From assembly GCA_024653825.1 (NCBI GenBank), contig JANLHF010000001.1, forward strand, positions 62-64,061: DNA of 64,000 bases, written 5' to 3'. Made by a program: the position numbers and the translations under genes. Source of the DNA: Patescibacteria group bacterium (GTDB lineage: Bacteria > Patescibacteriota > Minisyncoccia > Phycocordibacterales > Phycocordibacteraceae). Below the pieces are notes generated by a model. It searched no databases. It saw nothing but the letters and a program-made list of their open reading frames with translations, and was not told the origin of the DNA. This document shows, in pieces, positions 25,622 through 45,314 of the stretch. Each line of letters starts with the position of its first letter. Position 1 is the first letter of the stretch.

Positions 25622-25701
25622 GCCGCTCAACGGACACCGCGTCTGTATGAGCGGTTCTGTTTTTATAGATAGGCTCAAACGTACGGTGTATACTTCGCGC
25701 A

Positions 25702-26121: not shown

Positions 26122-26122
26122 T

Positions 26123-27286: not shown

Positions 27287-27304
27287 CCTGCCTTGGTCAC
27301 ACAG

Positions 27305-27343
27305 CGCCGCCCAAACAACTTAGGGCGGCGTCTTATTTTTGAT
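27305..27343 (+). terminator. Rho-independent terminator
   Basis: CGCCGCCCaaacaacttaGGGCGGCG followed by TCTTATTTTT. Confidence 0.6.
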
Positions 27344-27354
27344 ACGATGCATTC

Positions 27355-28851
27355 ATGAGCATCCTTGTCGCAGTGGTTGCAGGGTTCGCGAGCGGGATTT
27401 CTCTCCGCTCGCTTTTTTATTTCGACTGGGAACCGGTGGTGTTTGTTTTGATGATGGCGGCGCTGATTGGCGCGTTTGCTTTTATGAAGCCGCGGCGAGC
27501 ATACACGCTCGGTGCGGTGTTTTTTATTTTTGTCGCGCTCGGGATGGGGAGGTCAGCGATCGCAGACACGCCCGCGCCGGAAGCGTTTACGCGTGACCTG
27601 AAGCATCGTGTCTCCTACGACGCCGTCGTCGTGGGAGACCCCGACATCCGCGAGAAGAGTCAGCGAATTGCTGTTGAAGTTATTTCAGGAGAAGACAAAG
27701 TGGGAATGCTCGCCGTGATGCCGCTCTCGGCGAGAGTGGCAGTGGGCGACCGCGTGCGCGTGTACGGCACACTCTCCCTCCCACAAGCATTTGAGACAGA
27801 CGGCGGACGCACCTTCCGCTACGACAAATACCTTCAGGCGCGAAATGTCCGCTTCCTCCTTCAGTTCGGGACGATATACACGCGAGAACCGGCACCGTGG
27901 TATTCCGTCCCCGCTGCGCTCGCACACATGAAGCACACATTCTTAGACGGACTCAACCGTGCGTTACCAAACCCGCCAGCGGCGCTCGCGGGCGGCATCG
28001 TGATAGGAGGGAAGCAGGGGCTCGGCACCGAGCTCCAAGACGCCTTCACACGCTCGGGACTCGTACAGATAATTGTGCTCTCCGGATACAACGTGATGAT
28101 AGTGGCCGAATGGGTGATGGCATTCCTCGCCCTTCTTCTCTTGCCACGCCGGCTCCAGTACTTCGCCGGCGGGGCGGCGCTTCTCTTGTTCGTCGGCATC
28201 GCCGGTATCTCTGCCACCGCCGTGCGCGCCGCGATCATGGCGGTCATCGCGCTCTACGCGCGCGCGACCGGCCGCTCTTATGCCGCGAGCCGTGCACTGC
28301 TCTTCACCGTCTTCTTGATGATTGTGTGGAATCCTCTCTATTTATGCTTTGACCCCGGCTTCGGACTCTCCGTCGCCGCGACCGCGGGCATCATCTGGCT
28401 CTCGCCAATCATCGAAGCGCGCCTCACTCGCTTGCGGCCCTTTTTAAAAAACGCCGTGGCGACGACGCTCGCTGCACAAATTTCAGTATTACCGCTCCTT
28501 CTCTACAACATCGGGCTCTTCTCGCTCGTCGCCCTACCAGCAAATCTTCTCGTCAATCCGCTCATGCCACTCGCGATGGCTTCGGCCGCTATCGCAGGCG
28601 TCGTCGGCATGACCATCGGACCTTTCGTCCCGATTATCGCGACCATTGTCGGCTATCCCGCCCTCATCCTCATGCGCTATCTTATTTTTATTGCAGAAAA
28701 AAGTTCCGCACTGCCGTATGCGGCGTTCACGATTGCCCGTTTCCCATTTTTACTCGTCCTCGCCGCTTACGTGGCGCTCGTCTGGGTAGTCGCTTCAAAA
28801 CGCTTCTCAACGACAGACCAATTCAAGTTCGCCAAGAAGGCGTCCACATAA
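27355..28851 (+). CDS. comEC: ComEC/Rec2 family competence (DNA internalization) channel protein
   Basis: 498 aa polytopic protein with DUF4131-like N-terminal and competence domains. Confidence 0.8.
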   Translation: MSILVAVVAGFASGISLRSLFYFDWEPVVFVLMMAALIGAFAFMKPRRAYTLGAVFFIFVALGMGRSAIADTPAPEAFTRDLKHRVSYDAVVVGDPDIREKSQRIAVEVISGEDKVGMLAVMPLSARVAVGDRVRVYGTLSLPQAFETDGGRTFRYDKYLQARNVRFLLQFGTIYTREPAPWYSVPAALAHMKHTFLDGLNRALPNPPAALAGGIVIGGKQGLGTELQDAFTRSGLVQIIVLSGYNVMIVAEWVMAFLALLLLPRRLQYFAGGAALLLFVGIAGISATAVRAAIMAVIALYARATGRSYAASRALLFTVFLMIVWNPLYLCFDPGFGLSVAATAGIIWLSPIIEARLTRLRPFLKNAVATTLAAQISVLPLLLYNIGLFSLVALPANLLVNPLMPLAMASAAIAGVVGMTIGPFVPIIATIVGYPALILMRYLIFIAEKSSALPYAAFTIARFPFLLVLAAYVALVWVVASKRFSTTDQFKFAKKAST

Positions 28852-29950: not shown

Positions 29951-30074
29951 CATAGAAGCGTGTAGCCTACGGCTGCCTTCTACTTATGGCCCCACAGTTG
30001 TGACAGCGCCACGTCCATTCACAGTTCCAAACCACAAACTCCCACTTGTGGTCGCAACCATCGACCCGATAGTT

Positions 30075-30161
30075 TTATTTTTTCTTGCTTAAGCCACACT
30101 TGAAACATCTGTCATAACCACCACTCCAAATCCAGTCGTGCTCACAATCAAATTGTGCCAT
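30075..30161 (-). CDS. 28-aa Cys-rich zinc-ribbon-like peptide
   Basis: MAQFDCEHDWIWSGGYDRCFKCGLSKKK. A strong AAAGGAGA SD lies 7 nt upstream. A degenerate second copy, CDHKWEFVVWNCEWTWRCHNCG, follows without a start codon. Confidence 0.5.
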   Translation of the reverse strand: MAQFDCEHDWIWSGGYDRCFKCGLSKKK

Positions 30162-30165
30162 GTCC

Positions 30166-30549
30166 TTATCTCCTTTCTGATTTTCTTCTAGTCCCACTAT
30201 TTGTGTCTTTTGTCCGTGGAACCAAGAGCTTCATCTCCGGCGGAAGTGTAAATACCGCACGAACGATCTCTTTCTTTTCATATGGTCCTGAATAGGAGTG
30301 TCCCGAAATCCAACCCGAAATATCTCGATGATAGATGACCACGGTTGGATTACTCTTTGAGGGAGCATCTTTAATCTCGATGATTCTGAGAGGAATTTCC
30401 ATGGACACCGCCGTGCCATTCTTATTTTTTCTTTTTGGAAATCCTAAGACATGGATGAGGGCGGGCTTGTCGGAAAAGACCCCGCGTTGTCCCGGCTCAA
30501 ACAAGACATCTCGTATATCGAACTCCTCTTTCCACTTATGCTCTTCCAT
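30166..30549 (-). CDS. Hypothetical protein
   Basis: 127 aa, upstream of and co-oriented with the Cys-rich peptide. Confidence 0.5.
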   Translation of the reverse strand: MEEHKWKEEFDIRDVLFEPGQRGVFSDKPALIHVLGFPKRKNKNGTAVSMEIPLRIIEIKDAPSKSNPTVVIYHRDISGWISGHSYSGPYEKKEIVRAVFTLPPEMKLLVPRTKDTNSGTRRKSERR

Positions 30550-30745
30550 AAATTCTCCTTGGAGGGATCCTCTTCCCTTACTGATTAAACAACGGATTCA
30601 GTCGCGCGGTCAAAGATTTTGTAAAATCTGTTATATTTCTTAGTTATGATATGAGCCAAAATATCCTTATTTTACTTAGCATTATTGACAATAATATAGT
30701 TGTCTGATACTGTTGTTATAATTTACAACAAAACAGAGAAAAGAT

Positions 30746-31483
30746 ATGGATAACCGCATCAACAAAGTTCTGGAGCGTTTTGGCCTCACCGAGCAGGAAA
30801 CCTCCCTCTATCTGGCGTCTCTGTCGCTTGGTGAGGCCGATATGACAACCCTGACGAAGAAGGCGGGGGTGAACCGGAGCACCGGCTATCTTTTATTCAA
30901 GAACCTGGAGAAAAAAGGGCTCCTTGGTAGCTTCGTCATGCGCAAAAAGTTGCGCGTTGTACCCGCGCAGCCGGAACTTCTCTATTCTCGTGCACAAAAT
31001 GACCTCGGAGACCTTCAATCTCTTATACCAGAACTTAAGGCGTTGTCCGAGAAGGAGGATGGCCGGCCTAAAATCCGTTATTATTCGGGAAGGGAAGGAT
31101 ATATCACGGCTCTTGAAGAATCTCTACAGAAACCGAATTCTACTCTGCGACATATTGGCTCAATTAGCGAAGCACACGAGGTGTATAAGGAATACGACAT
31201 GAAGCATTTTATGCCGACCCGTATCAAGAGAAATATTCTAATAAAATCCCTCTATTCCCCTTCATTCAGTGAGGAATTAAAAACCCGCAGCCATACAAAG
31301 GAGTTGCGTGAGATAAAATATTTGCCGGAAGAATTTCACGCGAATACTGCAAAACTGATTTGCGACGATAAAGTTATCCTTACCAGTAGTAAAAAGGAGT
31401 TGGTTGCAGTGGTTATCGAAAGCAGCGACATCGCGGAAAGCGAGCGTCAGTACTTCGACCTTATCTGGGGCTTAACTAAATAG
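30746..31483 (+). CDS. TrmB-family-like HTH transcriptional regulator
   Basis: The N-terminal LGLTEQETSLYLASLSLGEADMTTLTKKAGVNRSTGYLLFKNLEKKGLL matches the TrmB wHTH pattern. Confidence 0.62.
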   Translation: MDNRINKVLERFGLTEQETSLYLASLSLGEADMTTLTKKAGVNRSTGYLLFKNLEKKGLLGSFVMRKKLRVVPAQPELLYSRAQNDLGDLQSLIPELKALSEKEDGRPKIRYYSGREGYITALEESLQKPNSTLRHIGSISEAHEVYKEYDMKHFMPTRIKRNILIKSLYSPSFSEELKTRSHTKELREIKYLPEEFHANTAKLICDDKVILTSSKKELVAVVIESSDIAESERQYFDLIWGLTK

Positions 31484-31562
31484 TCCCGCGCCGTCAGTCG
31501 TATATTGAGTGGTCTCCGACCTGCGGAAGAATTCTGGCGTGAACCCGACGGTTATCATACCG

Positions 31563-31781
31563 TCAGCATTTCTTTATCAATTCACGCGGGTTACCGTACA
31601 ACACCTTTCCTTCTCTCGCTTCTTGGAGGGAGCGCTGAAGCGACGAGAAGGCCGTCTCGCCAGCAAGTGCATCAATCCCGAGACGCACCGCGTGTGCCTT
31701 ATTCGCCGCCCGCCCGCTCTTCACGAGAGCCTTGATAAATTTCTCCTGCACTGGCGTGATGGGGACTGAAATAGTAGTCAT
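31563..31781 (-). CDS. Ribbon-helix-helix (ParD/CopG-like) antitoxin-like protein, orphan
   Basis: 72 aa. The N-terminal MTTISVPITPVQEKFIKALVKSGRA has an RHH beta-strand plus helix pattern. No adjacent toxin gene was found. Confidence 0.45.
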   Translation of the reverse strand: MTTISVPITPVQEKFIKALVKSGRAANKAHAVRLGIDALAGETAFSSLQRSLQEAREGKVLYGNPRELIKKC

Positions 31782-31885
31782 ATGATTTTATAATATCGAA
31801 TATGAATATATCATACACCCTGTTTGTGGGTAGGCAAGCAAAAACCGCCCTAGGGCGGTTTTTGCTTGCTCGCAAGTATTTCCGA

Positions 31886-32128
31886 TTAGATAGCTCCCGC
31901 TTTCTTGAGCGCGGCGAAGGCGCCGTTCTTCTTGATAGTTTTGAGACCTTTTACAGAAACGTCCACGATGACGGTCTTCTTGAGTTCAGCGACGTAGATA
32001 CGGCGCTTCTGGAGGTTGGCCTTACGGCGGACCTTCCCGGTCGGGTTAAATTGCGTCGCGCGGGTACGATTGGAGTACCGTCCGCCGATTTGCGTACTTT
32101 TTCCGGTGATTTCGCAGGCTCGTGCCAT
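31886..32128 (-). CDS. rpmB: 50S ribosomal protein L28
   Basis: MARACEITGK ... RRKANLQKRR is a typical bL28 sequence. Confidence 0.9.
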   Translation of the reverse strand: MARACEITGKSTQIGGRYSNRTRATQFNPTGKVRRKANLQKRRIYVAELKKTVIVDVSVKGLKTIKKNGAFAALKKAGAI

Positions 32129-33129: not shown

Positions 33130-33573
33130 ATGGAATATCAAGTGCCACAGTTCATTGAGGTGGAGGACAAGATCGTCGGACCTCTGACTCTAAAGCAATT
33201 CATTTATATTGCCGGCGCGAGTGGCATCTGTATCATCTTTTTCTTTTATCTACAGATGCTCTTCGCCATACTGCTCTCCCTTCCGGTGGTTGCCTTCGCC
33301 GCCGCTCTCGCCTTTTATAAAGTGAACGGAAAACCTTTTGTTGAGGTTATCGAGGCGGGCTTCAACTATTACACCGGCGCGAAGCTTTTCCTCTGGAAGC
33401 ATAGAGAGTCGACGATTCCTGAACAAAAGAGCGCGGCGGCGGCGGCGAAGGCAGAAGCGGCAGCTCCGGTTCCACGAGGCACTCCCAAACTTACGAGAGG
33501 GAAGCTCTCGGAACTTGCGTGGTCACTTGACGTAAAGGCGATGGGCAATAATTCGAATACCCCCACCCCCTAA
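33130..33573 (+). CDS. PrgI/VirB3-like small membrane protein
   Basis: MEYQVPQFIEVEDKIVGPLTLKQFIYI is followed by two TM helices. It lies immediately upstream of a VirB4-like ATPase, the classic VirB3-VirB4 synteny. Confidence 0.62.
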   Translation: MEYQVPQFIEVEDKIVGPLTLKQFIYIAGASGICIIFFFYLQMLFAILLSLPVVAFAAALAFYKVNGKPFVEVIEAGFNYYTGAKLFLWKHRESTIPEQKSAAAAAKAEAAAPVPRGTPKLTRGKLSELAWSLDVKAMGNNSNTPTP

Positions 33574-33574
33574 T

Positions 33575-34210
33575 ATGGCAACAAAAGTGTCCGGCGCGAC
33601 TCAACAATTCGTCCCCGTAAAAGAAATACGGAACGGCGTTATTGTGCTTAAAGACGGTGGATATCGCGGTATCCTTATCTGTTCCTCAGTCAATTTCGGA
33701 TTGAAGTCAGCCGATGAACAGCACGCCATCACTCTCGGCTTCCAAAATTTCCTTAACACGCTCGATTTTTCAATTCAAATCGTCGTGAATTCGCGCAAGA
33801 TGGACCTGCGCCCCTACCTCGCACTTCTTGAGGAGAAGGCCCCTGCACAAAGAACAGAACTTATGCGGATTCAGTTGCGAGAATATGTAGAATTCGTTCG
33901 CTCGTTCACCGATCAGGCAAATATTATGACGAAGTCGTTCTATATCGTCGTGCCCTATGCCCCCCACTCCTCTGCCGCTGGTGCGATGAGTTTTCTGCGC
34001 CACGAAAGCGCCACGACCAAGAACACCGCCGCAGAGACCTCCTTCGAGGAGAACCGCGCGCAGCTTGAACAGCGTCTAACCCTCGTTGCGAGCAGTCTCT
34101 CCGGCACCGGCGTGCGCGCGATTCCGCTCGGCACCGAAGAGATTATTGAACTCTTGTACCGTTCCTTCAATCCGGGCGAGCTCGAGAACCCTATCCGTCT
34201 CGACCAATAA
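33575..34210 (+). CDS. VirB4/TraC-like N-terminal domain protein (split from ATPase)
   Basis: 211 aa. It ends 2 nt before the ATPase ORF, in a different reading frame. Confidence 0.5.
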   Translation: MATKVSGATQQFVPVKEIRNGVIVLKDGGYRGILICSSVNFGLKSADEQHAITLGFQNFLNTLDFSIQIVVNSRKMDLRPYLALLEEKAPAQRTELMRIQLREYVEFVRSFTDQANIMTKSFYIVVPYAPHSSAAGAMSFLRHESATTKNTAAETSFEENRAQLEQRLTLVASSLSGTGVRAIPLGTEEIIELLYRSFNPGELENPIRLDQ

Positions 34211-34212
34211 GT

Positions 34213-36036
34213 ATGGCTCTCCTCGACTTTTTAAAGCGGAAGAATGAATCGGAACAAAGCACGACTATTATGCCAGTGCTTCCCAAAGATATTTATAAAC
34301 AAGGGTCACTCGACCTTGTGGACACTATCGCACCAACCGCACTTAAGATTGGTTCGCGCGAATTAGAACTCGGAGAAAAGTTCGTCCGCTCGTTCTATAC
34401 GATTTCCTACCCGCGATTCCTTTCAGACAGCTGGTTCTCCCCGGTTATCAACCTTGATAAAGTGCTCGACGCTTCCATCTTCATCCATCCGGTTGAGACC
34501 GAGGCCGCTCTGCGCGGATTCCAGAAGAAGGTTGCTGAAGTTCAGAGCCAAATCAATGAGCGCGAAGCAAAGGGTCTTGTGCGCGACCCTCTCCTTGATA
34601 CCGCCTATCAAGATCTCGAGAGCCTTCGCGACAGCCTTCAACAAGCACAGGAGAAACTATTTGATGTGGGGCTCTACCTGTCTCTGTACGGCGATTCAAA
34701 AGAAGAAATTGATAAGACTGAGGGCGATATCCGCGGAATTCTTGACGCGAAGCTCGTCTATACGAAGCCGGCGCTTTTTCAGCAGGAACAAGGATTCCGT
34801 TCCTGCCTCCCGCTTGGCACCGACGAACTTCTGGTAAATTCAAAATTGAACTCGTCGCCATTATCTTCAATCTTCCCCTTTGTTTCTTTTGACCTGACGA
34901 GCGATCGGGGAATTTTGTATGGAATAAACAGACACAACTCTTCACTCATTCTCTTCGATCGTTTCTCGCTTGAGAACTACAATTCTGTTGTCTTCGCGAA
35001 GTCAGGCTCCGGAAAGAGTTATGCAACGAAGCTTGAAATACTCCGCTCACTTATGTTCGGCACGGACGTCATCGTCATCGACCCCGAACGCGAGTATGAA
35101 CAGCTCGCGGAGGCGACCGGTGGGAGGTCTTTCCATATATCACTCTCTTCTGAGCATCACATCAACCCATTCGATCTGCCACCAGTGAAGGATGATGAAG
35201 ATCCGAAAGACATTCTCCGTTCCAACATCATCGCGCTTGTTGGACTTTTCCGCATCATGCTCTCAGGTCTCTCGCCTGAAGAGGACGCCATTGTTGACCG
35301 CGCCATCAGCGAGACCTACGCGCTCAAAGATATCACCGGCGATGCCGACTTCACCGGCGCCGAACCGCCGCTCCTCTCAGATTTTGAGCAGGTACTCGCC
35401 GGTATGGAGGGGAGTGAGTCGCTCGTCGAGCGTCTCTCGAAGTATACCCGCGGTACGTGGGCCGGATTTCTTAATCAGCCGACCAATATAGATTTCAAAC
35501 AGCAGTTCGCGGTCTTCTCTGTGCGTGATATGGAAGACGAACTTAAGCCGGTCGCGATGTACATCATCACACACTACATATGGAATGCGGTCCGCCACGA
35601 AATGAAAAAGCGCCTTCTTATTATCGATGAGGCCTGGTGGATGATGAAGAGCGATGACACCGCATCATTCCTTTATTCGGTCGCCAAGCGCGGACGCAAA
35701 TATTATCTTGGAGTCTGTACTATCACCCAGGACGTTGAAGACTTCCTCAAGAGTCCATACGGGAGACCCATTCTCACGAACTCCTCTATACAGTTGTTGT
35801 TGAAACAGTCGCCAACGACAATCGACGTGCTTCAAAAAACATTTAATCTCACCGATGAAGAAAAATATCTGCTGCTCGAGGCCGGGGTGGGGGAGGGGCT
35901 CTTCTTCGCCGGACTGAAGCATGTCGCAATTAAAGTTGTCGCGAGCTATACCGAGGATCAGATCATCACCTCCGACCCGTCGCAACTTCTCGCGATAAAG
36001 GAGGGCAAGGCCCGTCATGCCGCCGAACAAAAATAG
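34213..36036 (+). CDS. VirB4/TraC/TrbE-like conjugative-type ATPase
   Basis: Walker A FAKSGSGKSY, Walker B LLIIDEAW, and a C-terminal VirB4-type fold are present. 607 aa. Confidence 0.8.
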   Translation: MALLDFLKRKNESEQSTTIMPVLPKDIYKQGSLDLVDTIAPTALKIGSRELELGEKFVRSFYTISYPRFLSDSWFSPVINLDKVLDASIFIHPVETEAALRGFQKKVAEVQSQINEREAKGLVRDPLLDTAYQDLESLRDSLQQAQEKLFDVGLYLSLYGDSKEEIDKTEGDIRGILDAKLVYTKPALFQQEQGFRSCLPLGTDELLVNSKLNSSPLSSIFPFVSFDLTSDRGILYGINRHNSSLILFDRFSLENYNSVVFAKSGSGKSYATKLEILRSLMFGTDVIVIDPEREYEQLAEATGGRSFHISLSSEHHINPFDLPPVKDDEDPKDILRSNIIALVGLFRIMLSGLSPEEDAIVDRAISETYALKDITGDADFTGAEPPLLSDFEQVLAGMEGSESLVERLSKYTRGTWAGFLNQPTNIDFKQQFAVFSVRDMEDELKPVAMYIITHYIWNAVRHEMKKRLLIIDEAWWMMKSDDTASFLYSVAKRGRKYYLGVCTITQDVEDFLKSPYGRPILTNSSIQLLLKQSPTTIDVLQKTFNLTDEEKYLLLEAGVGEGLFFAGLKHVAIKVVASYTEDQIITSDPSQLLAIKEGKARHAAEQK

Positions 36037-37789
36037 TCCTCAACCGAAGGTGATGACGTGGCCGCGGGCGTGGCCGATGATCATCGGCACCGCCGTTTTT
36101 GATCTTGTCCGCGCCTTTTTCCAATTTTTTTGGTTCTTCGGGCCAGCGTTGGGAGCCATTGTCTGTACTGCTGGGGTAAACACCGCTGTCGGGGCGAGTA
36201 TTTCTGGTGTGGTGGGGAAGGTGGTCGCAACTGGCTGTAGTGGGGCTGCGGTCGTCCTCGGTTCTGTCTTTTCTGAAAGCACCACTGTATTTGGAGTCAT
36301 TGTGGCAGATGCCCTCGGTCTGTTCGGTTTTCTTGCTCTTAAGATGTGGATGTATTCAAATGCCCGTAGACGCAAAGTGCTTAAAGAGATGTGGCTCTTA
36401 CAAATGGGAAGTTTTATGGGAAGTCTTATCCCTTTCATTGGAGCATTTCCTTTTTATTCATTCGTCCTTTTCTTCACCTATAAACACCAAATAAAAATTG
36501 AGAAGGCAGATTACAAAAAATGGGAGAAGGAAACGGAGAATGCTCGGCTTCAACAACAGAATCAACAGGCGGCACGGGTTGCGCAGATACAGGCCGCGCA
36601 GCAGACGCGGGTCGAACAGGAACAAATTGTGCAACAAGAAACGGTGGAAGAAGAATCAAATAGAGAGGAAGAAATTTCTGTAGACGCTGATCCGACACCA
36701 ATCCAATATCAACCAGTCGCACGACCTGAGAAAAAACGGTGGTCTCCTGATAGTGGCGTCCCGCCGCCAATGACACCCGAGTATGGATGGCGAACGACTC
36801 CTCCTCCACTTCCTCAACCATTTTCTATACCTCCTCCATTGCCGACGATGACGCCCCCGCCTCTTCCGACGTCAGCACGTATGACCCCTCCACCATTACC
36901 GCCTACGTTACCTATTCCAAGCGTTTCAGGAATGAAAGAACGCTCAATGATAAGTTCGGATGAGAGATCAGTCGAGCAGGTGGCGTTGCGCAATAACGCG
37001 TTCATTGTCCATACTATTGCAGAAAGTGGGCAGGCTCAGCACCACAATGAAAACTCGAACGTATCTGGGAAAGCCACGTACGGAGACGATATGGACATTA
37101 TGTTGGCATTTGAACCATCGGTTTCTGCCTCGTCGGTTACCCCCAGTAAAAAAGCACAGCTGTGGACTGGGGACGGATTTTTGCTCGGAGGTGGCCAAAT
37201 TAGCGAAGCGGGAGGTAGCGACCAAGGAACTATCGCTCACGGAATCAAAAAACGCGGAAACAGAATGTCTTCACTTGAAGAAATTGACAATGTCATTGGC
37301 CGAAATAGCGAACTACATCAGAGTGACTACGAACGCGTTGGAACGTTCGGAATGAACGAGATCGTTGTGAACAATTCGGAGGTATTTGGATACTTTCAGC
37401 AAGCAGGAAAAGACAAAGACGGACATTATTGGATGCTCTCCACTGAAACGAAGAAAGACTCCGAGATGGCAAAAAAGATGCGCAAGTATGGGGAAACGTC
37501 ATTCGACAAGAATATGGAAAATTATCGCCGACGTTTTGCTACTGCTCAAGAACGCGGTATCCCCTTGTATATAATGACCCCCGACCGCGAGGTGTATGAA
37601 TATCGCGGGGTCAACGACGACGGAACCGTTGAAGTTGGAAAACAATTAACGCCAGAGGAGGTCGCTAGGGGTCGGGCAGGATTATCCACAGAGAAGAGAA
37701 AAGAAATTGGTGAAAAATTACTTGAAAAGAAAATCTTTAGGGGAGAAAAGACGCAGAAGGAGGCTGAAGAAATTATAAAATCACTTTGA
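36017..37789 (+). CDS. Polytopic membrane protein with a Pro-rich repeat linker and C-terminal globular domain (possible VirB6/TrbL-like)
   Basis: Four or five N-terminal TM helices, a Gln-rich coiled segment, and a proline-rich linker containing four TPPPLP repeats. It overlaps the VirB4 stop by 20 nt. Confidence 0.5.
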   Translation: MPPNKNSPQPKVMTWPRAWPMIIGTAVFDLVRAFFQFFWFFGPALGAIVCTAGVNTAVGASISGVVGKVVATGCSGAAVVLGSVFSESTTVFGVIVADALGLFGFLALKMWMYSNARRRKVLKEMWLLQMGSFMGSLIPFIGAFPFYSFVLFFTYKHQIKIEKADYKKWEKETENARLQQQNQQAARVAQIQAAQQTRVEQEQIVQQETVEEESNREEEISVDADPTPIQYQPVARPEKKRWSPDSGVPPPMTPEYGWRTTPPPLPQPFSIPPPLPTMTPPPLPTSARMTPPPLPPTLPIPSVSGMKERSMISSDERSVEQVALRNNAFIVHTIAESGQAQHHNENSNVSGKATYGDDMDIMLAFEPSVSASSVTPSKKAQLWTGDGFLLGGGQISEAGGSDQGTIAHGIKKRGNRMSSLEEIDNVIGRNSELHQSDYERVGTFGMNEIVVNNSEVFGYFQQAGKDKDGHYWMLSTETKKDSEMAKKMRKYGETSFDKNMENYRRRFATAQERGIPLYIMTPDREVYEYRGVNDDGTVEVGKQLTPEEVARGRAGLSTEKRKEIGEKLLEKKIFRGEKTQKEAEEIIKSL

Positions 37790-37865
37790 TAGAGACCCGA
37801 GGAGATACAAAGAGTTTCGCCACAGTATCCACTGGACATGATATAGCCAATTTGCTATACTGCGT

Positions 37866-38213
37866 TTGGAGCGGCTGTTGATATACCGACGCCCAATGGA
37901 ACAGTATCGCGAAGTACACCTCCTAGATTCCGCAAAAGAATATATTGACGGTGTTTCGATACCCGATCAAGCAACTATCGCCGCGCACGTTGCGTGTATG
38001 CGCTCGGGAGACTTCGAGTCGGTTCGTACTAAACAGTTGCGCGGCTCCATCCGAGAATTGATCGTCGGACATCATCGCATAACCTACTTTGAATTTGACT
38101 CGGCCCTATATTTTGTGAGGGGATTCAGGAAGAAAACTCCCAAAGCACCGAAGTCAGAAATCGACTATGCGGAGAAGGTATATAAAATAATAAGGAACTC
38201 AATAAAATTATGA
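37866..38213 (+). CDS. HigB/Gp49-like RelE-fold toxin
   Basis: 115 aa. Toxin-upstream, antitoxin-downstream order with an XRE partner. Basic C-terminus. Confidence 0.65.
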   Translation: MERLLIYRRPMEQYREVHLLDSAKEYIDGVSIPDQATIAAHVACMRSGDFESVRTKQLRGSIRELIVGHHRITYFEFDSALYFVRGFRKKTPKAPKSEIDYAEKVYKIIRNSIKL

Positions 38214-38503
38214 AAAAGAAACAACAAAATCTCCAGTGGCACTCCTTCGATGAGGTGTTCAGTAGGAGTTCAAAAAAGAAGGAGTTCCGCCTCGCATATA
38301 ACGAGGAAATTGTACGCCTACGGCTCGCTCGGCAGATTCGTAATCTTCGCACGACTAGTCAAATGACTCAACTGATAGTGGCGAAAAAATCGGGCATGCC
38401 ACAGTCCGTGATTGCTAGGGTTGAGAGTGGCGATCGCGGTATCTCTGTAGATACGCTTGGTCGAATCGCCCACACACTCGGCAAGGAAGTGCAGTTGGTG
38501 TGA
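38210..38503 (+). CDS. XRE-family HTH antitoxin (HigA-like)
   Basis: The HTH QMTQLIVAKKSGMPQSVIARVESGDRGISVDTLGRIAHTLG is present. 4-nt overlap with the toxin gene. Confidence 0.7.
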   Translation: MKKKQQNLQWHSFDEVFSRSSKKKEFRLAYNEEIVRLRLARQIRNLRTTSQMTQLIVAKKSGMPQSVIARVESGDRGISVDTLGRIAHTLGKEVQLV

Positions 38504-38537
38504 CCTCATTGCCTCGCGCAGGCGCTATACTAGAAGT

Positions 38538-39536
38538 ATGCGTTTGGGACTTTTTACGACCTTTCTTTCTATCCTTCTGCTCCCCGTAGCCGCTTCGGCA
38601 CAATCTCTGGGCGGGATAGGGGACGCGAGCGGCGGTTCATTTACTGTTTCGGTAGCTCCACAATTTCCAGTCCCTTACAGCACAGCGACATTGTCGTTTC
38701 TCTCTTCATCAATCGACCTCGCTAACGCGACGATAACAGTTACGGCTGATGGGAAGAAGATCTATCAGGGCAGTTCCCAGCCGGTATCTCTACCGCTTGG
38801 TGGAGCGGGATCCTCTGTAGACATTTCAGTAGCGGCCGTTACTAATGAATCCACTTATACACAGTATCTTTCTATCCAGCCACAAGATGTTGCCCTTGTC
38901 GCGGAACCTCTTTCCTCAGCGCCACCTCTCTACCTAGGAAAACCGTCAGTGCCCCCCGAGGGAAGCGTCCGCGTCGTCGCGATGGCAAATCTAAGAAGTG
39001 CGGGCGGGGGATCGCTCAACCCAACGGCACTTTCATATATTTGGACGGTCGATGGAGCCCAGATTGCGAACTCTTCAGGAATCGGCAAGGCAGCAATCAT
39101 CGTCGCCTCTCCCCTCCAATATCGCGCCCGCACTGTCGCTGTGTCGGTGACAAGCCAAGATGGATCTCTTGTAGGCGGCGCCAACCTCTCACTCTCTGTG
39201 TCTGAGCCCCTGATACGCGTCTACGAAAATGATCCTCTGCTTGGTATTCGGTTTGAAAAGGCCCTGAGCGGTACGTATACCATCAAGGGGACCGAATCAA
39301 CCCTATACGCCGCTCCTTTCTCTTTTGCGACGTCTGGCGGCCCCCCCCTTCTTCAATGGCTTCTGAATGGGGGGGTGGCGCAAACAGGTTCTTTAATCAC
39401 CTTGCGTCCCTCGGGTGGCGGACAAGGGAGGGCTTCGCTCTCGCTCATCGCATCCGAAGGACAGTTCACAACAATAACGACAAATCTTTCACTCTCTTTT
39501 GGTAACACCCCGAGCCCTAACTTCTTCGGCCTATGA
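38538..39536 (+). CDS. Secreted S/T/A-rich beta-rich protein
   Basis: Signal peptide MRLGLFTTFLSILLLPVAASAQS. 332 aa. Confidence 0.5.
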   Translation: MRLGLFTTFLSILLLPVAASAQSLGGIGDASGGSFTVSVAPQFPVPYSTATLSFLSSSIDLANATITVTADGKKIYQGSSQPVSLPLGGAGSSVDISVAAVTNESTYTQYLSIQPQDVALVAEPLSSAPPLYLGKPSVPPEGSVRVVAMANLRSAGGGSLNPTALSYIWTVDGAQIANSSGIGKAAIIVASPLQYRARTVAVSVTSQDGSLVGGANLSLSVSEPLIRVYENDPLLGIRFEKALSGTYTIKGTESTLYAAPFSFATSGGPPLLQWLLNGGVAQTGSLITLRPSGGGQGRASLSLIASEGQFTTITTNLSLSFGNTPSPNFFGL

Positions 39537-40264
39537 AAAAATTCCTTATTTTAATAGCAGTCTCATTTATCTCCTTTGTCCCGCTCGCTCTTGCTCAAAC
39601 ACAGAGCGGATTCATCCCACTCGCCCCAATCCCCGGTCTTACTGACCAGAGTCTGACCAGCGCAGTGAACTCAGACACGCTCGCAAACTTCTTTAATAAT
39701 CTTTATAAATATCTCATCGGGCTCGCTGCGGCAATCGCCGTTATCCAGATTATCTGGGCAGGGCTCGACATCGCCTTCTTCCATAAGGACGCGGTGAGCG
39801 CTATCACCGATGATAAAGGAAAAATATACAACGCCATCTATGGTCTTATCCTCATCCTGTCCCCGGTGCTCGTCTTCTCCATCATTAATCCTAATATCCT
39901 GAACCTCTCGATCGGTCTTCCGGAACTCGACACTGTATCTGGTCCTCCGATTCAACAAAACACAACAACGGTCACTCCTTATATACAACAATCGGTCAGA
40001 CCTGGGAGCACGCGAGCGATCTATAATGGCCAGCTTATCGGTTTCCAAGAAGGTCCCGCGACCACTCCCCAAGCAAGTACTTGGTGCTATCCTCTTGCTT
40101 CTCCTCAGACAAATACCGATCCGGCGCTGAACGGCGGACAACCATACCAAGCGACGGTTTTTTGCGCGCGAGACTCAGGGGGATGCAGATCTTTTATGAA
40201 TGGAAGTTCCGGAACACCATGGGTACCAGCAACAGGTGCCCAGTGTATTCTCACTCCTCCATAA
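39533..40264 (+). CDS. Signal-peptide protein with TM hairpin, VirB2/TrbC pilin-like candidate
   Basis: Signal peptide, then LANFFNNLYKYLIGLAAAIAVIQIIWAGLDIAF and a second helix. The topology resembles T4SS pilins. Confidence 0.4.
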   Translation: MKKFLILIAVSFISFVPLALAQTQSGFIPLAPIPGLTDQSLTSAVNSDTLANFFNNLYKYLIGLAAAIAVIQIIWAGLDIAFFHKDAVSAITDDKGKIYNAIYGLILILSPVLVFSIINPNILNLSIGLPELDTVSGPPIQQNTTTVTPYIQQSVRPGSTRAIYNGQLIGFQEGPATTPQASTWCYPLASPQTNTDPALNGGQPYQATVFCARDSGGCRSFMNGSSGTPWVPATGAQCILTPP

Positions 40265-40265
40265 T

Positions 40266-41465
40266 ATGCGTCAAAAACTAATCATTGCTGCAGCTGCGAT
40301 AGTCATCCTCGGGATTGGCGCCGCTGTCTACTTTCTCTTCTTCACCGGCTCCGCAACAGTGACCACTGTTCCGGGAACAACCTCTGGCCTACCTATGTCC
40401 GGCCCGGAAACATCTCTACCTGGAGAAACAACGTCGACGACCACATCTCTCGTGCTGGGATCGCCGATATCTGTTGGGGCTCGGTTGGTGAAGATTGCCG
40501 CAGGGCCGATAGTTCCGGGAGAAATAATCGTGAACAAGGAAGGCACGGCGAGTACCTCTCCCGAATCTACGGTCAGTTATATCGAACGCCAGAGCGGTAA
40601 TGTGTATGCCTACAGCACCCTCACAAAGGCGATAACGCGTATCTCGAACAAGACTGTCCCAGGTATCCAGTCTGCCGTATGGCTCCCCGATGCGTCGACC
40701 GCATTCGTCCGGTATCTCTCGGGAACAGATTTTTCAACCCTTAACACCTATGCGCTCCCCGTAAGTGGTTCCGGTGGATTTTTCCTCTCCCAAAATCTGT
40801 CCGACATCAGCGTTTCTTCCGCGAACATTCTCACCCTCGCCTCGGGCGTCAACGGCTCCAGTGTCTCCCTTGCGCGTACTGATGGATCACACTCATCATC
40901 GGTATTTACAACCCCTCTCTCCTCCCTCCGTATCTCGTTCGTGGGAAAGTCACAATATCTTGTCTTTACCAAGCCCTCCGCGACGCTCATGGGCAACGCC
41001 TTCCTTGTAGATGGTGCGGGGCGTTTCTCGCGCATCGCGGGCCCTCTCACCGGCCTTGTTGCTCTCGCGAGCCCTCTCGGGAAGTGGGTGCTGATAAGTT
41101 ACACCTTGGGGAATGCAATGCAGTTGAAACTAGTGAATGTCGCAACGAAAGAATCCGTCGCCCTCCCGATCGCGACCATCGCCGACAAGTGTGTGTGGGC
41201 ACAAAACGACTCTTCAGTGTATTGCGGCATACCAATGAATCCTTCTGGTTCAAACTACCCTGATGACTGGTATCAAGGGGCAATACATTTCTCGGACCGT
41301 ATTTGGAAAATAGAAGTGGCGAGCCGTTACGCACAACTCATTCTTGATTTTACAGCAGAAACGAAAGACGCTCTTGATGCCGAAGCCCTCTCTATTGATG
41401 CATCTCTAACTACCCTTGTGTTTGTGAATAAAAATGATGGCTCACTCTGGAGCTACTCTTTGTAA
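40266..41465 (+). CDS. Membrane-anchored periplasmic beta-propeller-like protein
   Basis: N-terminal TM helix, then repeated beta-rich segments. 399 aa. Confidence 0.45.
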   Translation: MRQKLIIAAAAIVILGIGAAVYFLFFTGSATVTTVPGTTSGLPMSGPETSLPGETTSTTTSLVLGSPISVGARLVKIAAGPIVPGEIIVNKEGTASTSPESTVSYIERQSGNVYAYSTLTKAITRISNKTVPGIQSAVWLPDASTAFVRYLSGTDFSTLNTYALPVSGSGGFFLSQNLSDISVSSANILTLASGVNGSSVSLARTDGSHSSSVFTTPLSSLRISFVGKSQYLVFTKPSATLMGNAFLVDGAGRFSRIAGPLTGLVALASPLGKWVLISYTLGNAMQLKLVNVATKESVALPIATIADKCVWAQNDSSVYCGIPMNPSGSNYPDDWYQGAIHFSDRIWKIEVASRYAQLILDFTAETKDALDAEALSIDASLTTLVFVNKNDGSLWSYSL

Positions 41466-42200
41466 TTCCTCCTTTAGATCCTCTGTGGTGAGTGTTTTAC
41501 GTACATAGAGCTCTTGGAGTGCTCCGGCGAGGTTTGTTGTAATAAAATAGAGAGCAACAGCCCCTGAGGTCGTGTAAGAGATTGTTCCAATAAGGAAGGG
41601 GAAGACGTATTTCAACTGTAACCCCATCACGCGCTGGAAATCATTTTGCATACCCCTGCCCTCGGACGGCTTCATCGTCCCTGAAAGGGCCATATGCGCT
41701 TGGAGGAACTGAGTGATGCCCGCGAGCACTGCGAGGGTGATACTTTTCCCTGCGACAGAAATAAATCCTAAGAACTCTAGGGAGATGAGGTGTGGAATCG
41801 GGGTAAGTGCATAGAGCCGGGCGGTGTTGATAGTTGAAAAAGGCTCGTAATAGAAGACCCAGTAGAGGGCGAGAAGAACGGGGATCTGGATGAAAACAGT
41901 GAGGATACTCGCGAAAGGATTCACTTGTGCCTCTTTATAGAGAGCGAGTGTCTCGAGTGCTTCTTTCTCTTTATCTCCCTTATGTTTTTCTTTCAGGTCT
42001 TTTATCTTCGGCTCGAGTATCTTCATCGCGCGCTGGGTGCGTGCCGCAGAAAGGGAGAAGGGGAGAAGTACGAGACGGATAACAATAGTGAGAAGAATGA
42101 CCGCAATCCCTACATCCCCACCAGGGACGAGCGCAACAAGAGCGACAAGAGCGTTGTAGATCGGATTATAGAAAACAGTGTGGAAAAAAGTTGAGATCAC
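41442..42200 (-). CDS. yidC: Membrane protein insertase YidC (short form)
   Basis: 252 aa with the YidC/Oxa1 core helices. It lies in rpmH-rnpA-yidC synteny. Confidence 0.85.
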   Translation of the reverse strand: MISTFFHTVFYNPIYNALVALVALVPGGDVGIAVILLTIVIRLVLLPFSLSAARTQRAMKILEPKIKDLKEKHKGDKEKEALETLALYKEAQVNPFASILTVFIQIPVLLALYWVFYYEPFSTINTARLYALTPIPHLISLEFLGFISVAGKSITLAVLAGITQFLQAHMALSGTMKPSEGRGMQNDFQRVMGLQLKYVFPFLIGTISYTTSGAVALYFITTNLAGALQELYVRKTLTTEDLKEELQRVAPE

Positions 42201-42496
42201 GAAAGAAGTTTCTTTAACTCTGATTGAATATCTTTGTAGCTTACACTACTTACAGATGTTTTGGGAAAAAGAATGAGGGAAGAAGGAAGCTGGAGGGTGC
42301 GGAGTGCTGAAAGTACGCGACGTTTTATCTTATGTCGTGTGACCGAGAGCCTCGCTACCTTTTTGGGTATAACCACAGCGTGTCCTCTTCCTTCTGAGGA
42401 GATAATCACCATAAAATGTAGTGAGGAGAGCCTTCGTCCGGTTTTAAGGACGGTAGGGAATGACGCTCGAGGAAGCCGTTCTCGCCGTCTAAACAC
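42197..42496 (-). CDS. rnpA: Ribonuclease P protein component
   Basis: 99 aa, basic, with the RNR-like motif KKVARLSVTRHKIKRR. It is adjacent to rpmH. Confidence 0.82.
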   Translation of the reverse strand: MFRRRERLPRASFPTVLKTGRRLSSLHFMVIISSEGRGHAVVIPKKVARLSVTRHKIKRRVLSALRTLQLPSSLILFPKTSVSSVSYKDIQSELKKLLS

Positions 42497-42498
42497 AG

Positions 42499-42636
42499 CT
42501 AAACCGCGAGACGGGTCCTCCCGGCACGACGACGACGGAGCACAATCTTGCGCCCAGAACTTGTCTTTGTGCGGGCGAGGAACCCGTGGGTGGTAGCGCG
42601 CTTCTTTTTCTTCGGTTGATAGGTCCGTTTGGTCAT
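42499..42636 (-). CDS. rpmH: 50S ribosomal protein L34
   Basis: Translated by hand: [45 protein letters not shown]. It is below the ORF-track length cutoff. Confidence 0.85.
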
Positions 42637-42731
42637 GTAGAAAAGATTAGTTTATACACATGATATTAACAGGTTTTCCACGAAACGCCAACGTGCCTTG
42701 TTTATGGTATCAGCGTATACTCCAGAGTATT
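42637..42731. promoter_or_regulatory. Putative oriC segment / dnaA promoter region with DnaA-box-like sites
   Basis: TTATACACA (8/9) and TTTTCCACG (7/9) lie between rpmH and dnaA. A further CTATCCACA lies at 44099-44107, between dnaA and dnaN. Confidence 0.45.
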
Positions 42732-44084
42732 ATGGATAAGGGAAATCCTCGAGAGTTGTGGGAATACATTCTTACTCAAATCGAGCTTTCTATTTCTTCC
42801 GCAAATTTCAATACTTGGTTTCGAAATAGCTTCATAGTAAAAATAGGAGAGGACGGGGTTATCTACATCGGGGTGCCGAGCCAATTTTTTAAAGATTGGT
42901 ACCTAAAGAAATTTCATTCTCTTCTTTTGAAGATTGCCCGTGATGTTTCGTATGAGTTCCGTAATATTGAATATCTTATTGTAAAGGATGAACACCGTAA
43001 GATTCAGAAAGAAACGAAGAATGTGCGTGGTGTAATGGAACTCCCTCTTGATGAATTCTATATCAACAAAAGTGATAGTCTAAATCCGCGCTACACCTTC
43101 GATACGTTCGTTATTGGTTCTTTTAATACTCTTGCGCACACTGCCGCTCAAGCAGCGCTTGCACGACCTGGTATCACCTATAATCCTCTCTTTGTGTATG
43201 GCGACACAGGAAGAGGGAAGACCCATCTTATTCAAGCGATTGGAAATCAGTTTAAGAAACAGTACCCTGGACGCAAAGTGTTTTATCTCACTTCAGAAAA
43301 ATTTGCTGTTGATTACACTGATTCGGTACAAGCGGGAACTGCAAATCGTTTCAAAGACAAATACCGTCAGTATGATCTTCTTATTATGGATGACGTTCAG
43401 TTCCTCTCTAAAAAAGATAAAACGCAAGAAGAACTCTTTCATCTCTTTAATACCCTCCACGATACAAATAAACAAATTATATTTTCCTCCGATCGTGCAC
43501 CTTCTGCTATTCCTGATATTGCTGAACGATTAAAAGGTCGTCTTGCAAGTGGTATGGCGGTCGATATTAGTGAACCTGATACTGAATCGCGTATGGCTAT
43601 CGTACAGAAAAAGGCTGCATCACATGGGATTATGCTTTCCCCAGAAGTTATCGAGTATGTCGCGACAGCAATGTCAGGCTCTATCCGAGAATTAGAAGGG
43701 ATGGTGAATAGTATTATTTGTCATGCTCAAGTAAAGGGGAGTGCACCTGATATTGCTGAGGTACGCCAATCACTTCGCTCTTTTACTCGACCTCAGAAAA
43801 ACATCTCTGTGAAGAATGTAGTTGATAAGGTCGCAGAATATTATGGTATTGATGAAGAAAGTATTTATGAGAAAACAAGAAGAAGAGAGGTAGTGCGTCC
43901 TCGACAAGTAATTATGTACCTCCTTAGAGAAGACTTTAGTATTTCATATCCTACAATAGGAACAAAACTTGGTGGTCGTGATCACACAACTGTTATTCAC
44001 TCGTGTGAGAAAATAAAGCGTGAAGTACTTGTGGACAATGATCTTTTAAAAGAGATCCAAAATATTAGATCTCTTCTTGTATGA
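42732..44084 (+). CDS. dnaA: Chromosomal replication initiator DnaA
   Basis: AAA+ Walker A GDTGRGKTHL, a sensor region, and a C-terminal DNA-binding helix-turn-helix. Confidence 0.93.
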   Translation: MDKGNPRELWEYILTQIELSISSANFNTWFRNSFIVKIGEDGVIYIGVPSQFFKDWYLKKFHSLLLKIARDVSYEFRNIEYLIVKDEHRKIQKETKNVRGVMELPLDEFYINKSDSLNPRYTFDTFVIGSFNTLAHTAAQAALARPGITYNPLFVYGDTGRGKTHLIQAIGNQFKKQYPGRKVFYLTSEKFAVDYTDSVQAGTANRFKDKYRQYDLLIMDDVQFLSKKDKTQEELFHLFNTLHDTNKQIIFSSDRAPSAIPDIAERLKGRLASGMAVDISEPDTESRMAIVQKKAASHGIMLSPEVIEYVATAMSGSIRELEGMVNSIICHAQVKGSAPDIAEVRQSLRSFTRPQKNISVKNVVDKVAEYYGIDEESIYEKTRRREVVRPRQVIMYLLREDFSISYPTIGTKLGGRDHTTVIHSCEKIKREVLVDNDLLKEIQNIRSLLV

Positions 44085-44196
44085 ACTTTATACTTACTCT
44101 ATCCACATATTCTGTTTTCTTGAATGAGGAAAATACACAATCACTATATAGTTCTTTCAGCCTATCCCCAGTGTTAACAGCCCTAATAGATGTTGT

Positions 44197-45297
44197 ATGA
44201 ATATTTCAATAGAAAAAAAAGAATTCGTTGAAGCAGTGCATAAGTCAGCACGTTTTGCTGAAAAGAAGACTGGAACACTCCCAGCACTCTCTTCAATCCT
44301 TATTATTGCAAGTGGTGATGGTATAAAAATGCGCGCAACGAATCTTGAAACAGGTATTGATTTAAAACTGAATGGAAAAGTTATATCCGATGGTGTTGTT
44401 GCAATACCTGCAACTATACTCCAACAGATAGCAAGTTCACTTACTCATGAAGGGACGATAGTATTAGAACATACAGGAGACACTCTCTCATTAAAGAGTG
44501 GTATGGGAAAAAGTACTATTAAGACGGTTGCTTACGACGATTTTCCTTCAATTCCTTTTCCAGAGAATCCGAAAAATAGAATGGTGATTCCTGGAGTTCT
44601 TCTTCGTTCTCTTTTTACCTCAATAGCATCTTGTGCTTCTTCTTCGACTATTCGACCTGAATTATCGAGTTTATATCTATCTGTAGAGGGAAATATATTA
44701 ACTGCAGTAGCAACAGATTCTTTCCGTCTCGCAGAGAAAAAAATTCCTCTTTCAAATAAAGGAACACAAGGAAAATTCCTTATTCCTGCTAAAAATGCGC
44801 TTGAGATAGCACAAGCACTACCAGATGAAGATATTATTATGTCTTTCGATGAACATCAATGTGCTTTTGTGGGAGATATGGGAATGATTGTTTCTCGACT
44901 CACAAACGCAACATATCCTGATTATCGGCAGATAATACCAAAAGAATCAATTGTTGAAGCGATTGTTCTTCGAAAAGATTTTGAACAAGCTTTAAAAAGA
45001 ACTACTATTTTTTCCGATTCATTCCAGAAAATACGAATAAGCTTTGATTCAAAGAAAAATACTCTTTCATTTTTTGCACGCAATCCAGATATTGGAGAAT
45101 CATCAGAAATCATACCAGCTCATATATCCGGTAGTGCACTCGATCTCTCGTTTAACTATCGGTATCTTTCAGCGGTACTCTCTCTTACAACTACAGAAAG
45201 TATTTCATTAACTGCTGCAGGAATAGGGCGCCCAATTATTATAAAGGGGATAACTGATACATCTCTTCTGTATCTCGTCTCTCCAATGAATCAGTAG
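44197..45297 (+). CDS. dnaN: DNA polymerase III beta sliding clamp
   Basis: 366 aa with a three-domain clamp pattern, directly downstream of dnaA. Confidence 0.9.
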   Translation: MNISIEKKEFVEAVHKSARFAEKKTGTLPALSSILIIASGDGIKMRATNLETGIDLKLNGKVISDGVVAIPATILQQIASSLTHEGTIVLEHTGDTLSLKSGMGKSTIKTVAYDDFPSIPFPENPKNRMVIPGVLLRSLFTSIASCASSSTIRPELSSLYLSVEGNILTAVATDSFRLAEKKIPLSNKGTQGKFLIPAKNALEIAQALPDEDIIMSFDEHQCAFVGDMGMIVSRLTNATYPDYRQIIPKESIVEAIVLRKDFEQALKRTTIFSDSFQKIRISFDSKKNTLSFFARNPDIGESSEIIPAHISGSALDLSFNYRYLSAVLSLTTTESISLTAAGIGRPIIIKGITDTSLLYLVSPMNQ

Positions 45298-45314
45298 AAG
45301 ATATATAATCCTAT

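Follow-up and report, generated by a model that had tools for sequence, protein, structure and literature searches.

A probable host-interaction type IV secretion system encoded beside dnaA in a Paceibacteria genome, with an enzyme-like domain fused to its post-VirB4 membrane protein

We analysed 64,000 nt of contig JANLHF010000001.1 (GenBank assembly GCA_024653825.1, positions 62 to 64,061 of the forward strand; hereafter the window) from the metagenome-assembled genome of a Paceibacteria-class, Kaiserbacteria-like patescibacterium, in which nine genes, A to I, form a cluster at 33130-41465 that a first-pass annotation had called a type IV secretion system (T4SS)-like module. All nine open reading frames (ORFs) of that annotation were found where it had put them (Table 1), and the cluster is, with high probability, a core chromosomal T4SS of the Patescibacteria clade, derived from the MPF-FATA class and likely serving host interaction, not conjugation. 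As such it is a rediscovery of a system already described (PMC12102498, PMC10633639, PMC12857230). Quinonero-Coronel et al. (2025, Microb Genom) reported VirB4 in 2,417 of 3,035 Patescibacteria genomes, forming a monophyletic clade nested in MPF-FATA, with TrsD as the most abundant T4SS-associated protein (2,272 homologues), PrgI/VirB3, VirB2-like pilins, few detectable VirB6 or VirB8 proteins and almost no relaxases; in Paceibacteria the cluster was located near dnaA, dnaN and rnpA (PMC12102498). In a 2025 review the patescibacterial T4SS counts as a new branch, by now established, of the T4SS superfamily (PMC12857230). The cluster in the window is probably a typical Paceibacteria representative of this published clade and no new kind of system; unusual locally are an enzyme-like domain fused to protein D, the membrane protein encoded after virB4, and an inserted toxin-antitoxin (TA) pair.

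Profile searches with VirB3/PrgI, VirB4 and pilin models gave matches above cut-off, whereas VirB6/TrbL models gave none. Protein A matched Pfam PrgI (PF12666) with E 1.1e-10 and 42.4 bits (cut-off 27), in agreement with its earlier PrgI/VirB3-like call, and hydropathy predicted a hairpin of two transmembrane (TM) segments. Protein C matched the CD1110-family VirB4 model NF045971 over model positions 183-733 with 370.6 bits (cut-off 325), as well as Pfam P-loop_TraG (E 1.9e-25) and, below threshold, the TraC-F-type (E 1e-54) and VirB4_CagE (TIGR00929, E 5e-35) models; its translation contained a Walker A motif AKSGSGKS and a Walker B motif LLIIDE. The first-pass annotation had named two outcomes as fatal to its reading, a failure to match VirB3/VirB4 families and an ATPase of the FtsK/HerA type, and neither occurred: DUF87/HerA (E 5e-8) and CedB were minor P-loop side matches of C. 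Protein B matched the N-terminal part of VirB4 models (NF045971, model positions 1-168, E 6.4e-7; NF045975, E 5e-8) and TrsD (NF041427, E 2.6e-3, 17.6 bits, far below the NCBIfam cut-off of 200). All 44 B orthologues matched VirB4 N-terminal models (best E 3.9e-12) and 39 matched the TrsD/TraD family (best E 1.3e-10), the orthologue in the related locus L084 having a precomputed Pfam match to TraC-like PF26593. Since all scores of the B family were far below the NCBIfam whole-protein cut-offs, the matches point to B being a homologue of TrsD, not an equivalog member.

Protein H matched the T4SS_pilin family (PF18895) with 28.6 bits (cut-off 26.6) and scored just below the cut-off for TrbC (PF04956; 24.9 bits, cut-off 27.9). 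Across 40 orthologues, 35 matched T4SS_pilin (best E 3e-11) and 20 matched TrbC. Hydropathy predicted a signal peptide and a two-TM hairpin in the first ~130 residues, followed by a hypervariable, Cys-containing C-terminal extension; orthologues ranged from 148 to 473 aa and aligned in their N-terminal part only. The profile matches thus identify H as a putative VirB2-type pilin, which upholds the earlier suggestion of a pilin candidate.

To compare loci across genomes, one genome per GTDB species was scanned with the window VirB4 protein, which returned at least 569 relatives; locus counts given here refer to the best 80 of these (named L001 etc.), in which VirB4 was 74-95% identical to that of the window; this identity and the shared synteny lend indirect support to a place in the Patescibacteria clade. 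Most of the 80 were labelled Kaiserbacteria, Paceibacterota, Parcubacteria or similar, and some were machine-labelled 'Saccharibacteria'. The order PrgI, TrsD, VirB4, (small TM protein), G, H, I, yidC(-), rnpA(-), dnaA, dnaN was the same in 79 of the 80 loci, the exception being L039, in which H and I were swapped. PrgI orthologues (76/80 loci) always lay immediately 5' of TrsD, and orthologues of G and I were present in 75 and 65 loci, respectively. L28 and an M50 protease formed the upstream flank in the window and its closest relatives, and downstream came yidC and rnpA, both on the opposite strand, then dnaA and dnaN. For every component, identity to the window followed that of dnaA (Spearman 0.83-0.91). 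The GC content of the module (0.48-0.52) was like that of the rest of the contig, there was neither an integrase nor a composition anomaly at the module, and all of its ORFs were intact, with the Walker motifs retained. Packing is tight, with 1 nt between A and B, 2 nt and a change of frame between B and C, and 1 nt between H and I; D starts 20 nt before the end of C, and G and H share an ATGA (-4 nt). The conserved synteny, the co-divergence with dnaA and the contig-like GC content together show that the module is core, chromosomal and vertically inherited beside the probable replication origin, and not a mobile element or a conjugation remnant; the question of core or mobile, which the first-pass annotation had left to a synteny comparison, was thereby settled in favour of core, synteny and co-divergence being the grounds for rejecting a mobile origin. 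GC content falls to 0.38-0.43 around dnaA and dnaN (window positions 42000-46000), beside rnpA and yidC, which fits an oriC neighbourhood.

Two further conserved proteins are G and I. G was predicted by hydropathy to carry a signal peptide (ASA/Q), of classic form when translation starts at ATG 38538, and has beta-sandwich (Ig-like) repeats and a conserved C-terminal FGL; its Ig-like matches were weak (BiPBP_C in 11 and Cadherin-like in 6 of 34 orthologues, and also PKD). The hydropathy of G and H bears out the earlier description of the one as a signal-peptide protein and of the other as a signal peptide plus TM hairpin. I was described as membrane-anchored and beta-rich, and hydropathy and modelling agree: an N-terminal TM anchor leads into a stalk of ~70 aa, disordered and rich in Ser/Thr, and then into an extracytoplasmic beta-propeller (residues ~100-399). 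The AF2 model of I had a pLDDT of 67 overall and 65-90 in the propeller, and all 1016 Foldseek matches against the PDB at E<=1e-3 were beta-propellers (Drp35, TolB, WD40, tricorn). A protein search returned 822 homologues of I; none of the 120 listed had a Pfam domain or a name beyond 'hypothetical protein'. We also considered I as the missing VirB8/PrgL/TcpC-like subunit (NTF2-like), a candidate rejected on the beta-propeller model. From their conserved synteny and predicted location we infer that G and I are envelope-spanning or host-contacting parts.

Protein D occupies the position held by VirB6 or PrgH in other T4SS. Most relatives encode after virB4 a protein of only 120-280 aa with 2-4 (rarely 6) hydrophobic segments, the gene of which overlaps the end of virB4 in close relatives, while a few more distant genomes do not have it there; in the window the start of D overlaps the end of virB4 by 20 nt, as had been read from the coordinates before. 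The N-terminal domain of D comprises, by hydropathy, ~4 TM helices and a Pro-containing hairpin, and D29, P139 and P145 varied hardly at all among 52 orthologues. By hydropathy and the positive-inside rule, D would have a cytoplasmic N-terminus, four TM helices, a cytoplasmic RRRK loop, a hairpin at P139/P145 and a Lys-rich cytoplasmic part, a topology that would place the linker and the C-terminal domain in the cytoplasm. The linker begins with a Lys/Glu/Gln-rich stretch, probably a coiled-coil, and continues into four [TI]PPPLP repeats (residues 261-295). Four TPPPLP repeats had been reported; the number holds, and three are TPPPLP (at 261, 279 and 290) while the one at 271 is IPPPLP.

The extended D is a rare form of this normally 120-280 aa membrane protein. 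Its 590-aa form was found only in the window, in L001, in L005 (divergent) and in a handful of metagenome proteins, one of which is an 842-aa version at the same position in GCA_038911915.1. At L005:11799-13460, the post-VirB4 protein carries a 29%-identical version of the His/Ser/Glu domain, and at L037:11846-13126 it carries a different C-terminal extension with a Lys/Glu-rich repeat region; judging by these divergent extensions, domains seem prone to accrete at the C-terminus of this subunit. Extended VirB6 proteins (Rickettsiales paralogues, F TraG; PMC12857230) similarly combine a polytopic T4SS subunit with a large hydrophilic C-terminal domain, but D differs from them in having no detectable VirB6/TrbL homology, in having ~4 TM helices plus a hairpin instead of at least 5 TM helices, and in the predicted cytoplasmic location of its extra domain, which soluble proteins also possess.

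By homology, the VirB4 ATPase would have PrgI/VirB3 and the TrsD-like protein as its partners at the cytoplasmic membrane, where the polytopic D, translationally coupled to virB4, may supply a membrane channel element in the place of VirB6/PrgH, as its position and topology suggest. H would be exported via Sec as a VirB2-type pilin and assembled by VirB4 into a pilus or conduit, and the Ig-like G and the stalked propeller I may be extracellular parts particular to the lineage, spanning the envelope or decorating it and making contact with the host cell. As neither a relaxase nor a coupling protein accompanies these genes, the machine most likely does not conjugate DNA; it is more likely to move proteins or other macromolecules between episymbiont and host in a contact-dependent manner, as proposed for Saccharibacteria. 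Two additions to this scheme are present in the window: a HigB-XRE cassette between D and G, and a predicted cytoplasmic enzyme-like domain tethered to D by the coiled-coil and PPPLP linker. The first-pass annotation had seen no relaxase, coupling protein or VirB9/10/11, and indeed the scan of 30 other window ORFs (some small ORFs remained unscanned) gave no T4CP/VirD4, relaxase or VirB1/8/9/10/11; the products of those scanned include two PilB, PilC, PilM, ComEC, RecJ, PBP1, PolA, RuvB/C, NusA and an H+-PPase.

Several points weigh against this interpretation. Homology of D to VirB6, TrbL or PrgH was undetectable: none of the 52 D orthologues matched a VirB6/TrbL Pfam family, a PDB sequence-profile search with the D membrane domain returned only noise, and none of the 19 database homologues of this domain (profile search, 5.8 billion proteins) had a precomputed Pfam domain, so a VirB6-like role is drawn only from where the gene lies, its translational coupling and the topology of its product. 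None of the components could be recognised as VirB8-like or VirB1-like, I being a propeller, and the roles given to G and I follow only from their conserved synteny and the place where they are predicted to be. It is possible that a coupling protein is encoded beyond the 64-kb contig, as the search covered the window only. Experiments come from a saccharibacterium: Wang et al. (2023, Cell) by Tn-seq found the T4SS cluster essential for epibiotic growth of Southlakia epibionticum, in which the cluster has pilin genes and is without recognisable coupling or relaxase proteins (PMC10633639).

An alternative that we regard as unlikely is that the system is a DNA-uptake machine, like archaeal Ced or Helicobacter ComB, feeding nucleic acids to a bacterium that cannot make nucleotides. 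The lack of a relaxase or T4CP would suit such a role, as would the presence in the window, at a distance of 5-20 kb, of genes for ComEC, RecJ and the type IV pilus, and possible T4SS pili have been connected with the acquisition of host RNA in a 2026 preprint on a cultivated relative. C also weakly matched the DNA-import ATPases CedB (E 7e-8) and CedD (E 1e-5), but these matches span 45-75 P-loop residues and are far below cut-offs, and homologues of other Ced or ComB components were not seen. Furthermore, in S. epibionticum deletion of comEC ends competence but not viability, whereas the T4SS is essential (PMC12857230), so that ComEC-dependent transformation is not what makes it essential there.

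The C-terminal domain of D, which the first-pass annotation could not recognise, is still of unrecognised function but now belongs to a defined family with a confident fold model: the structure prediction asked for earlier gave, for residues 312-590 (278 aa), an AF2 model with pLDDT 86.1 and pTM 0.84 from 22 sequences. An exhaustive HMMER search of 1.84 billion representatives returned 462 clusters at E<=1e-3 and 280 at E<=1e-10. Nearly all of 147 newly returned proteins (150 best matches) had no TM segments or signal peptides; these soluble homologues have acidic or coiled-coil N-terminal regions, several with PPPLP motifs, and the only recurring Pfam partner of the family was DUF4116 (11/72). 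For ten divergent members, a cluster look-up gave no taxon names that were informative. One His (in FxVH), one Ser (in EPxxSxS), one Glu (in NE) and two Gly were invariant over 72 divergent members, the first three corresponding to H332, S372 and E448 of D; R325, E366, S370, S373, D402, R413, D424 and N447 were also invariant among close homologues. Sequence searches of Pfam, NCBIfam and the PDB gave no match to the domain, nor did a search of BFVD, and Foldseek gave none at E<=1e-3. Its best Foldseek match in the PDB was the ADP-ribosyltransferase (ART) CteC (E 0.014, probability 0.82, TM 0.29-0.36, rmsd ~12 A). None of three soluble homologues viewed in context had T4SS genes nearby, their surroundings being unrelated housekeeping genes: two lay between PFOR genes and rubrerythrin/Zip, and one near gyrA. 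The sole link of the family to T4SS is the fusion itself.

A possible but doubtful reading of the model is that the domain is a divergent ART-like enzyme, acting as a tethered effector or as a modifier of the cargo or the machine, with its soluble relatives being T4SS-linked effectors. The three best Foldseek PDB matches were three chains of CteC, the R-S-E mono-ADP-ribosyltransferase of Chromobacterium violaceum (PDB 8ux2) and the only structural neighbour found for the domain. Of the family-wide invariant residues, the His lies on the first strand, the Ser in the SxSxSS strand and the Glu in the NE motif; an Arg 7 residues before the His is invariant among close homologues only, and the order and spacing R325...S372...E448 resemble CteC R65-S97-E220 minus its 38-residue insertion. 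Fusion to a T4SS subunit also argues for a functional link. On the other hand, the structural match is weak (TM ~0.3, identity 11-12%) and the searches listed above returned no ART family in Pfam, NCBIfam or PDB sequence profiles and nothing in BFVD. R325 is helical and off the first strand in the model, and the Arg is not invariant in the wider family; moreover, a hydrolase would be just as compatible with the conserved His, Ser and Glu, and the soluble homologues are not encoded near T4SS genes. We likewise give only a small chance to the broader proposal that the domain represents a family of uncharacterised enzymes, which seems to occur in uncultured, Patescibacteria-like genomes alone, is maybe ART-like and functionally tied to the T4SS.

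The embedded HigBA pair of the first-pass annotation stood up to profile searches: E matched Gp49 (PF05973) with 33.2 bits (cut-off 23.9) and F matched HTH_3 with 39.2 bits (cut-off 23), with weak NCBIfam matches to HigA (E 0.015) and HipB antitoxin models. The pair resembles HigBA/Gp49-XRE type II TA modules in that the toxin gene precedes the antitoxin gene and overlaps it by 4 nt (ATGA), and in the combination of a Gp49 toxin with an HTH_3 antitoxin; it differs in the weakness of the match of its antitoxin to HigA-specific models. higB probably has its own promoter, as suggested by a sequence TGGACA-17-TATACT with an extended -10 TG (10/12 matches), the best site of a 10-kb scan, although the total of promoter and terminator sites in that region was no more than expected by chance. 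A Gp49-XRE pair was missing between D and G in all 80 related loci, which marks it as having been inserted later and as no part of an ancestral element; L076 alone has a distant Gp49-XRE pair, 5' of PrgI. HigBA is therefore a strain-specific insertion that splits the A-D and G-I blocks and not a component of the secretion system. TA pairs are typical of mobile DNA, and the best match of VirB4 was to an ICE/conjugative family model (CD1110), so one might take the module for a decayed integrative conjugative element (ICE) that lost its relaxase and T4CP after integration. This is very improbable, given the identical order and position from L28/M50 to yidC/rnpA/dnaA in 79/80 species genomes, the co-divergence of the components with dnaA (Spearman ~0.9), the intact ORFs, the lack of an integrase or composition anomaly and the absence of the TA pair from this site in the other 80 genomes.

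The division of VirB4 over two genes is old. The earlier description of a VirB4 N-domain ORF and an ATPase ORF, separated by 2 nt and in different frames, agreed with both coordinates and profiles, and the two tile the same 752-position VirB4 model (B 1-168, C 183-733), together making up a full VirB4. In 78 of 78 relatives with both parts complete, they were separate ORFs with a stop and then a new ATG; the distance between them varied from 1 to 486 nt, and each of the three possible frame relationships occurred. Three genomes have an extra small gene of ~130 codons between trsD and virB4 (L050:4314-4757, L066:2974-3420 and L067:9514-10001), so the two halves are independent cistrons. The split VirB4 is an ancestral, conserved TrsD + VirB4 two-gene arrangement. 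That B and C are instead a frameshifted or pseudogenised single virB4, or an assembly error, as their 2-nt spacing, differing frames and joint tiling might suggest, has next to no chance of being correct: it was ruled out by the two-gene state in all 78 relatives, and also opposed by the genes inserted between the halves, by the match of the B family to TrsD, a separate protein of plasmid pGO1, and by the TrsD homologues counted throughout Patescibacteria (PMC12102498).

Table 1. Genes and sites of the T4SS cluster in the window (all coordinates are window positions)
Feature	Coordinates	Strand	Basis
A: PrgI/VirB3-like small membrane protein, 147 aa	33130..33573	+	PF12666, two-TM hairpin ~19-56
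B: TrsD-like, stand-alone VirB4 N-domain homologue, 211 aa	33575..34210	+	VirB4/TrsD model matches
C: VirB4-family ATPase without N-domain, 607 aa	34213..36036	+	NF045971, Walker A/B
D: whole extended membrane protein, 590 aa	36017..37789	+	ORF
D N-terminal polytopic membrane domain, residues 1-160	36017..36496	+	hydropathy
D linker, residues 161-311	36497..36949	+	read from sequence
D C-terminal globular domain, residues 312-590, unannotated family	36950..37789	+	AF2 model, homologue search
Promoter-like site before higB	37833..37861	+	promoter scan, only suggestive
E: HigB/Gp49-type toxin	37866..38213, likely start ATG 37896	+	PF05973
F: XRE/HTH_3 antitoxin	38210..38503	+	HTH_3 profile
G: secreted protein, 332 aa	38538..39536 (ORF from 38457, probable start ATG 38538)	+	signal peptide, Ig-like repeats
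H: putative VirB2/TrbC-type T4SS pilin	39533..40264	+	PF18895, signal peptide + two-TM hairpin
I: TM anchor + stalk + beta-propeller	40266..41465 (ORF from 40200, probable start ATG 40266)	+	AF2, Foldseek

D and I are identical to the NCBI proteins NUV60_00220 and NUV60_00240, respectively. Elsewhere in the window, type IV pilus genes are located at 14207-18900, 50342-52174(-) and 61317-62417, encoding two PilB-like ATPases (T2SSE+MshEN), PilC (T2SSF) and PilM, with a 573-aa CarboxypepD_reg protein directly 3' of PilC; these are the usual patescibacterial type IV pilus set and separate from the T4SS. RecJ, an RNase H-like protein and ComEC (Competence + DUF4131) are encoded at 23564-28851, 5-10 kb 5' of the T4SS, and the order RecJ-RNaseH-ComEC-SOD-L28-M50-PrgI was also found in L084. 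A stretch of low GC content (30000-32000; 0.457 vs ~0.52) between SOD and L28 holds a TrmB-like regulator (30746-31483), a 127-aa ORF (30166-30549(-)) and a 72-aa ORF (31563-31781(-)). As a TrmB homologue was present in only 1 of the 80 related loci, and at another place in that locus, this stretch is probably a second strain-specific insertion. ARAGORN predicted a tRNA-Gly(tcc) at 5710-5781(+) inside a 505-aa trypsin-like protease ORF (4517-6034(-)); either the start of the ORF is over-extended or the tRNA call is spurious.

Compared with the clade described by Quinonero-Coronel et al., the cluster in the window shares PrgI/VirB3, TrsD, VirB4 and a VirB2-like pilin near virB4, the place by dnaA/dnaN/rnpA, the lack of a relaxase and of an outer-membrane core, and the poor detectability of VirB6 and VirB8; its one pilin gene has a long variable tail, where that clade has a pilin array, and the extended post-VirB4 protein, its C-terminal domain family, the propeller and Ig-like neighbours and the TA insertion do not appear in that paper (PMC12102498). 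The S. epibionticum cluster (SEML1_0006-0019) is likewise a monoderm-type T4SS that includes pilin genes, is without a recognisable coupling or relaxase protein and has been proposed to act between epibiont and host, but it belongs to the class Saccharimonadia, has six divergent pilins and carries peptidase and lysozyme genes 3' of virB4; essentiality was shown there (PMC10633639). The Trs system of Staphylococcus plasmid pGO1 (MPF-FATA subclass) has the same order of a VirB3-like protein, TrsD and VirB4 (TrsC-TrsD-TrsE), but sits on a conjugative plasmid with a relaxase and T4CP and has neither a VirB2 pilin nor a VirB6 homologue.

The patescibacterial T4SS is thought to underlie the episymbiosis of a very large bacterial radiation, and the window provides a conserved Paceibacteria parts list for it: PrgI, TrsD, VirB4, a small TM protein, the Ig-like G, a variable-tail pilin and a stalked propeller. 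The extended D, with its unannotated His/Ser/Glu family, is the only element that might lead somewhere new. If the functional tie between this family and the T4SS were true, its soluble members, in which PPPLP motifs are frequent, would serve the machine as cargo, as effectors or as regulators, and the rare D fusion would be a 'Rosetta-stone' clue to the first candidate substrates or cofactors of an essential, cargo-less patescibacterial T4SS. A lineage in which an otherwise soluble enzyme-like domain is fused to the machine thus offers a testable lead to the function or cargo of the system.

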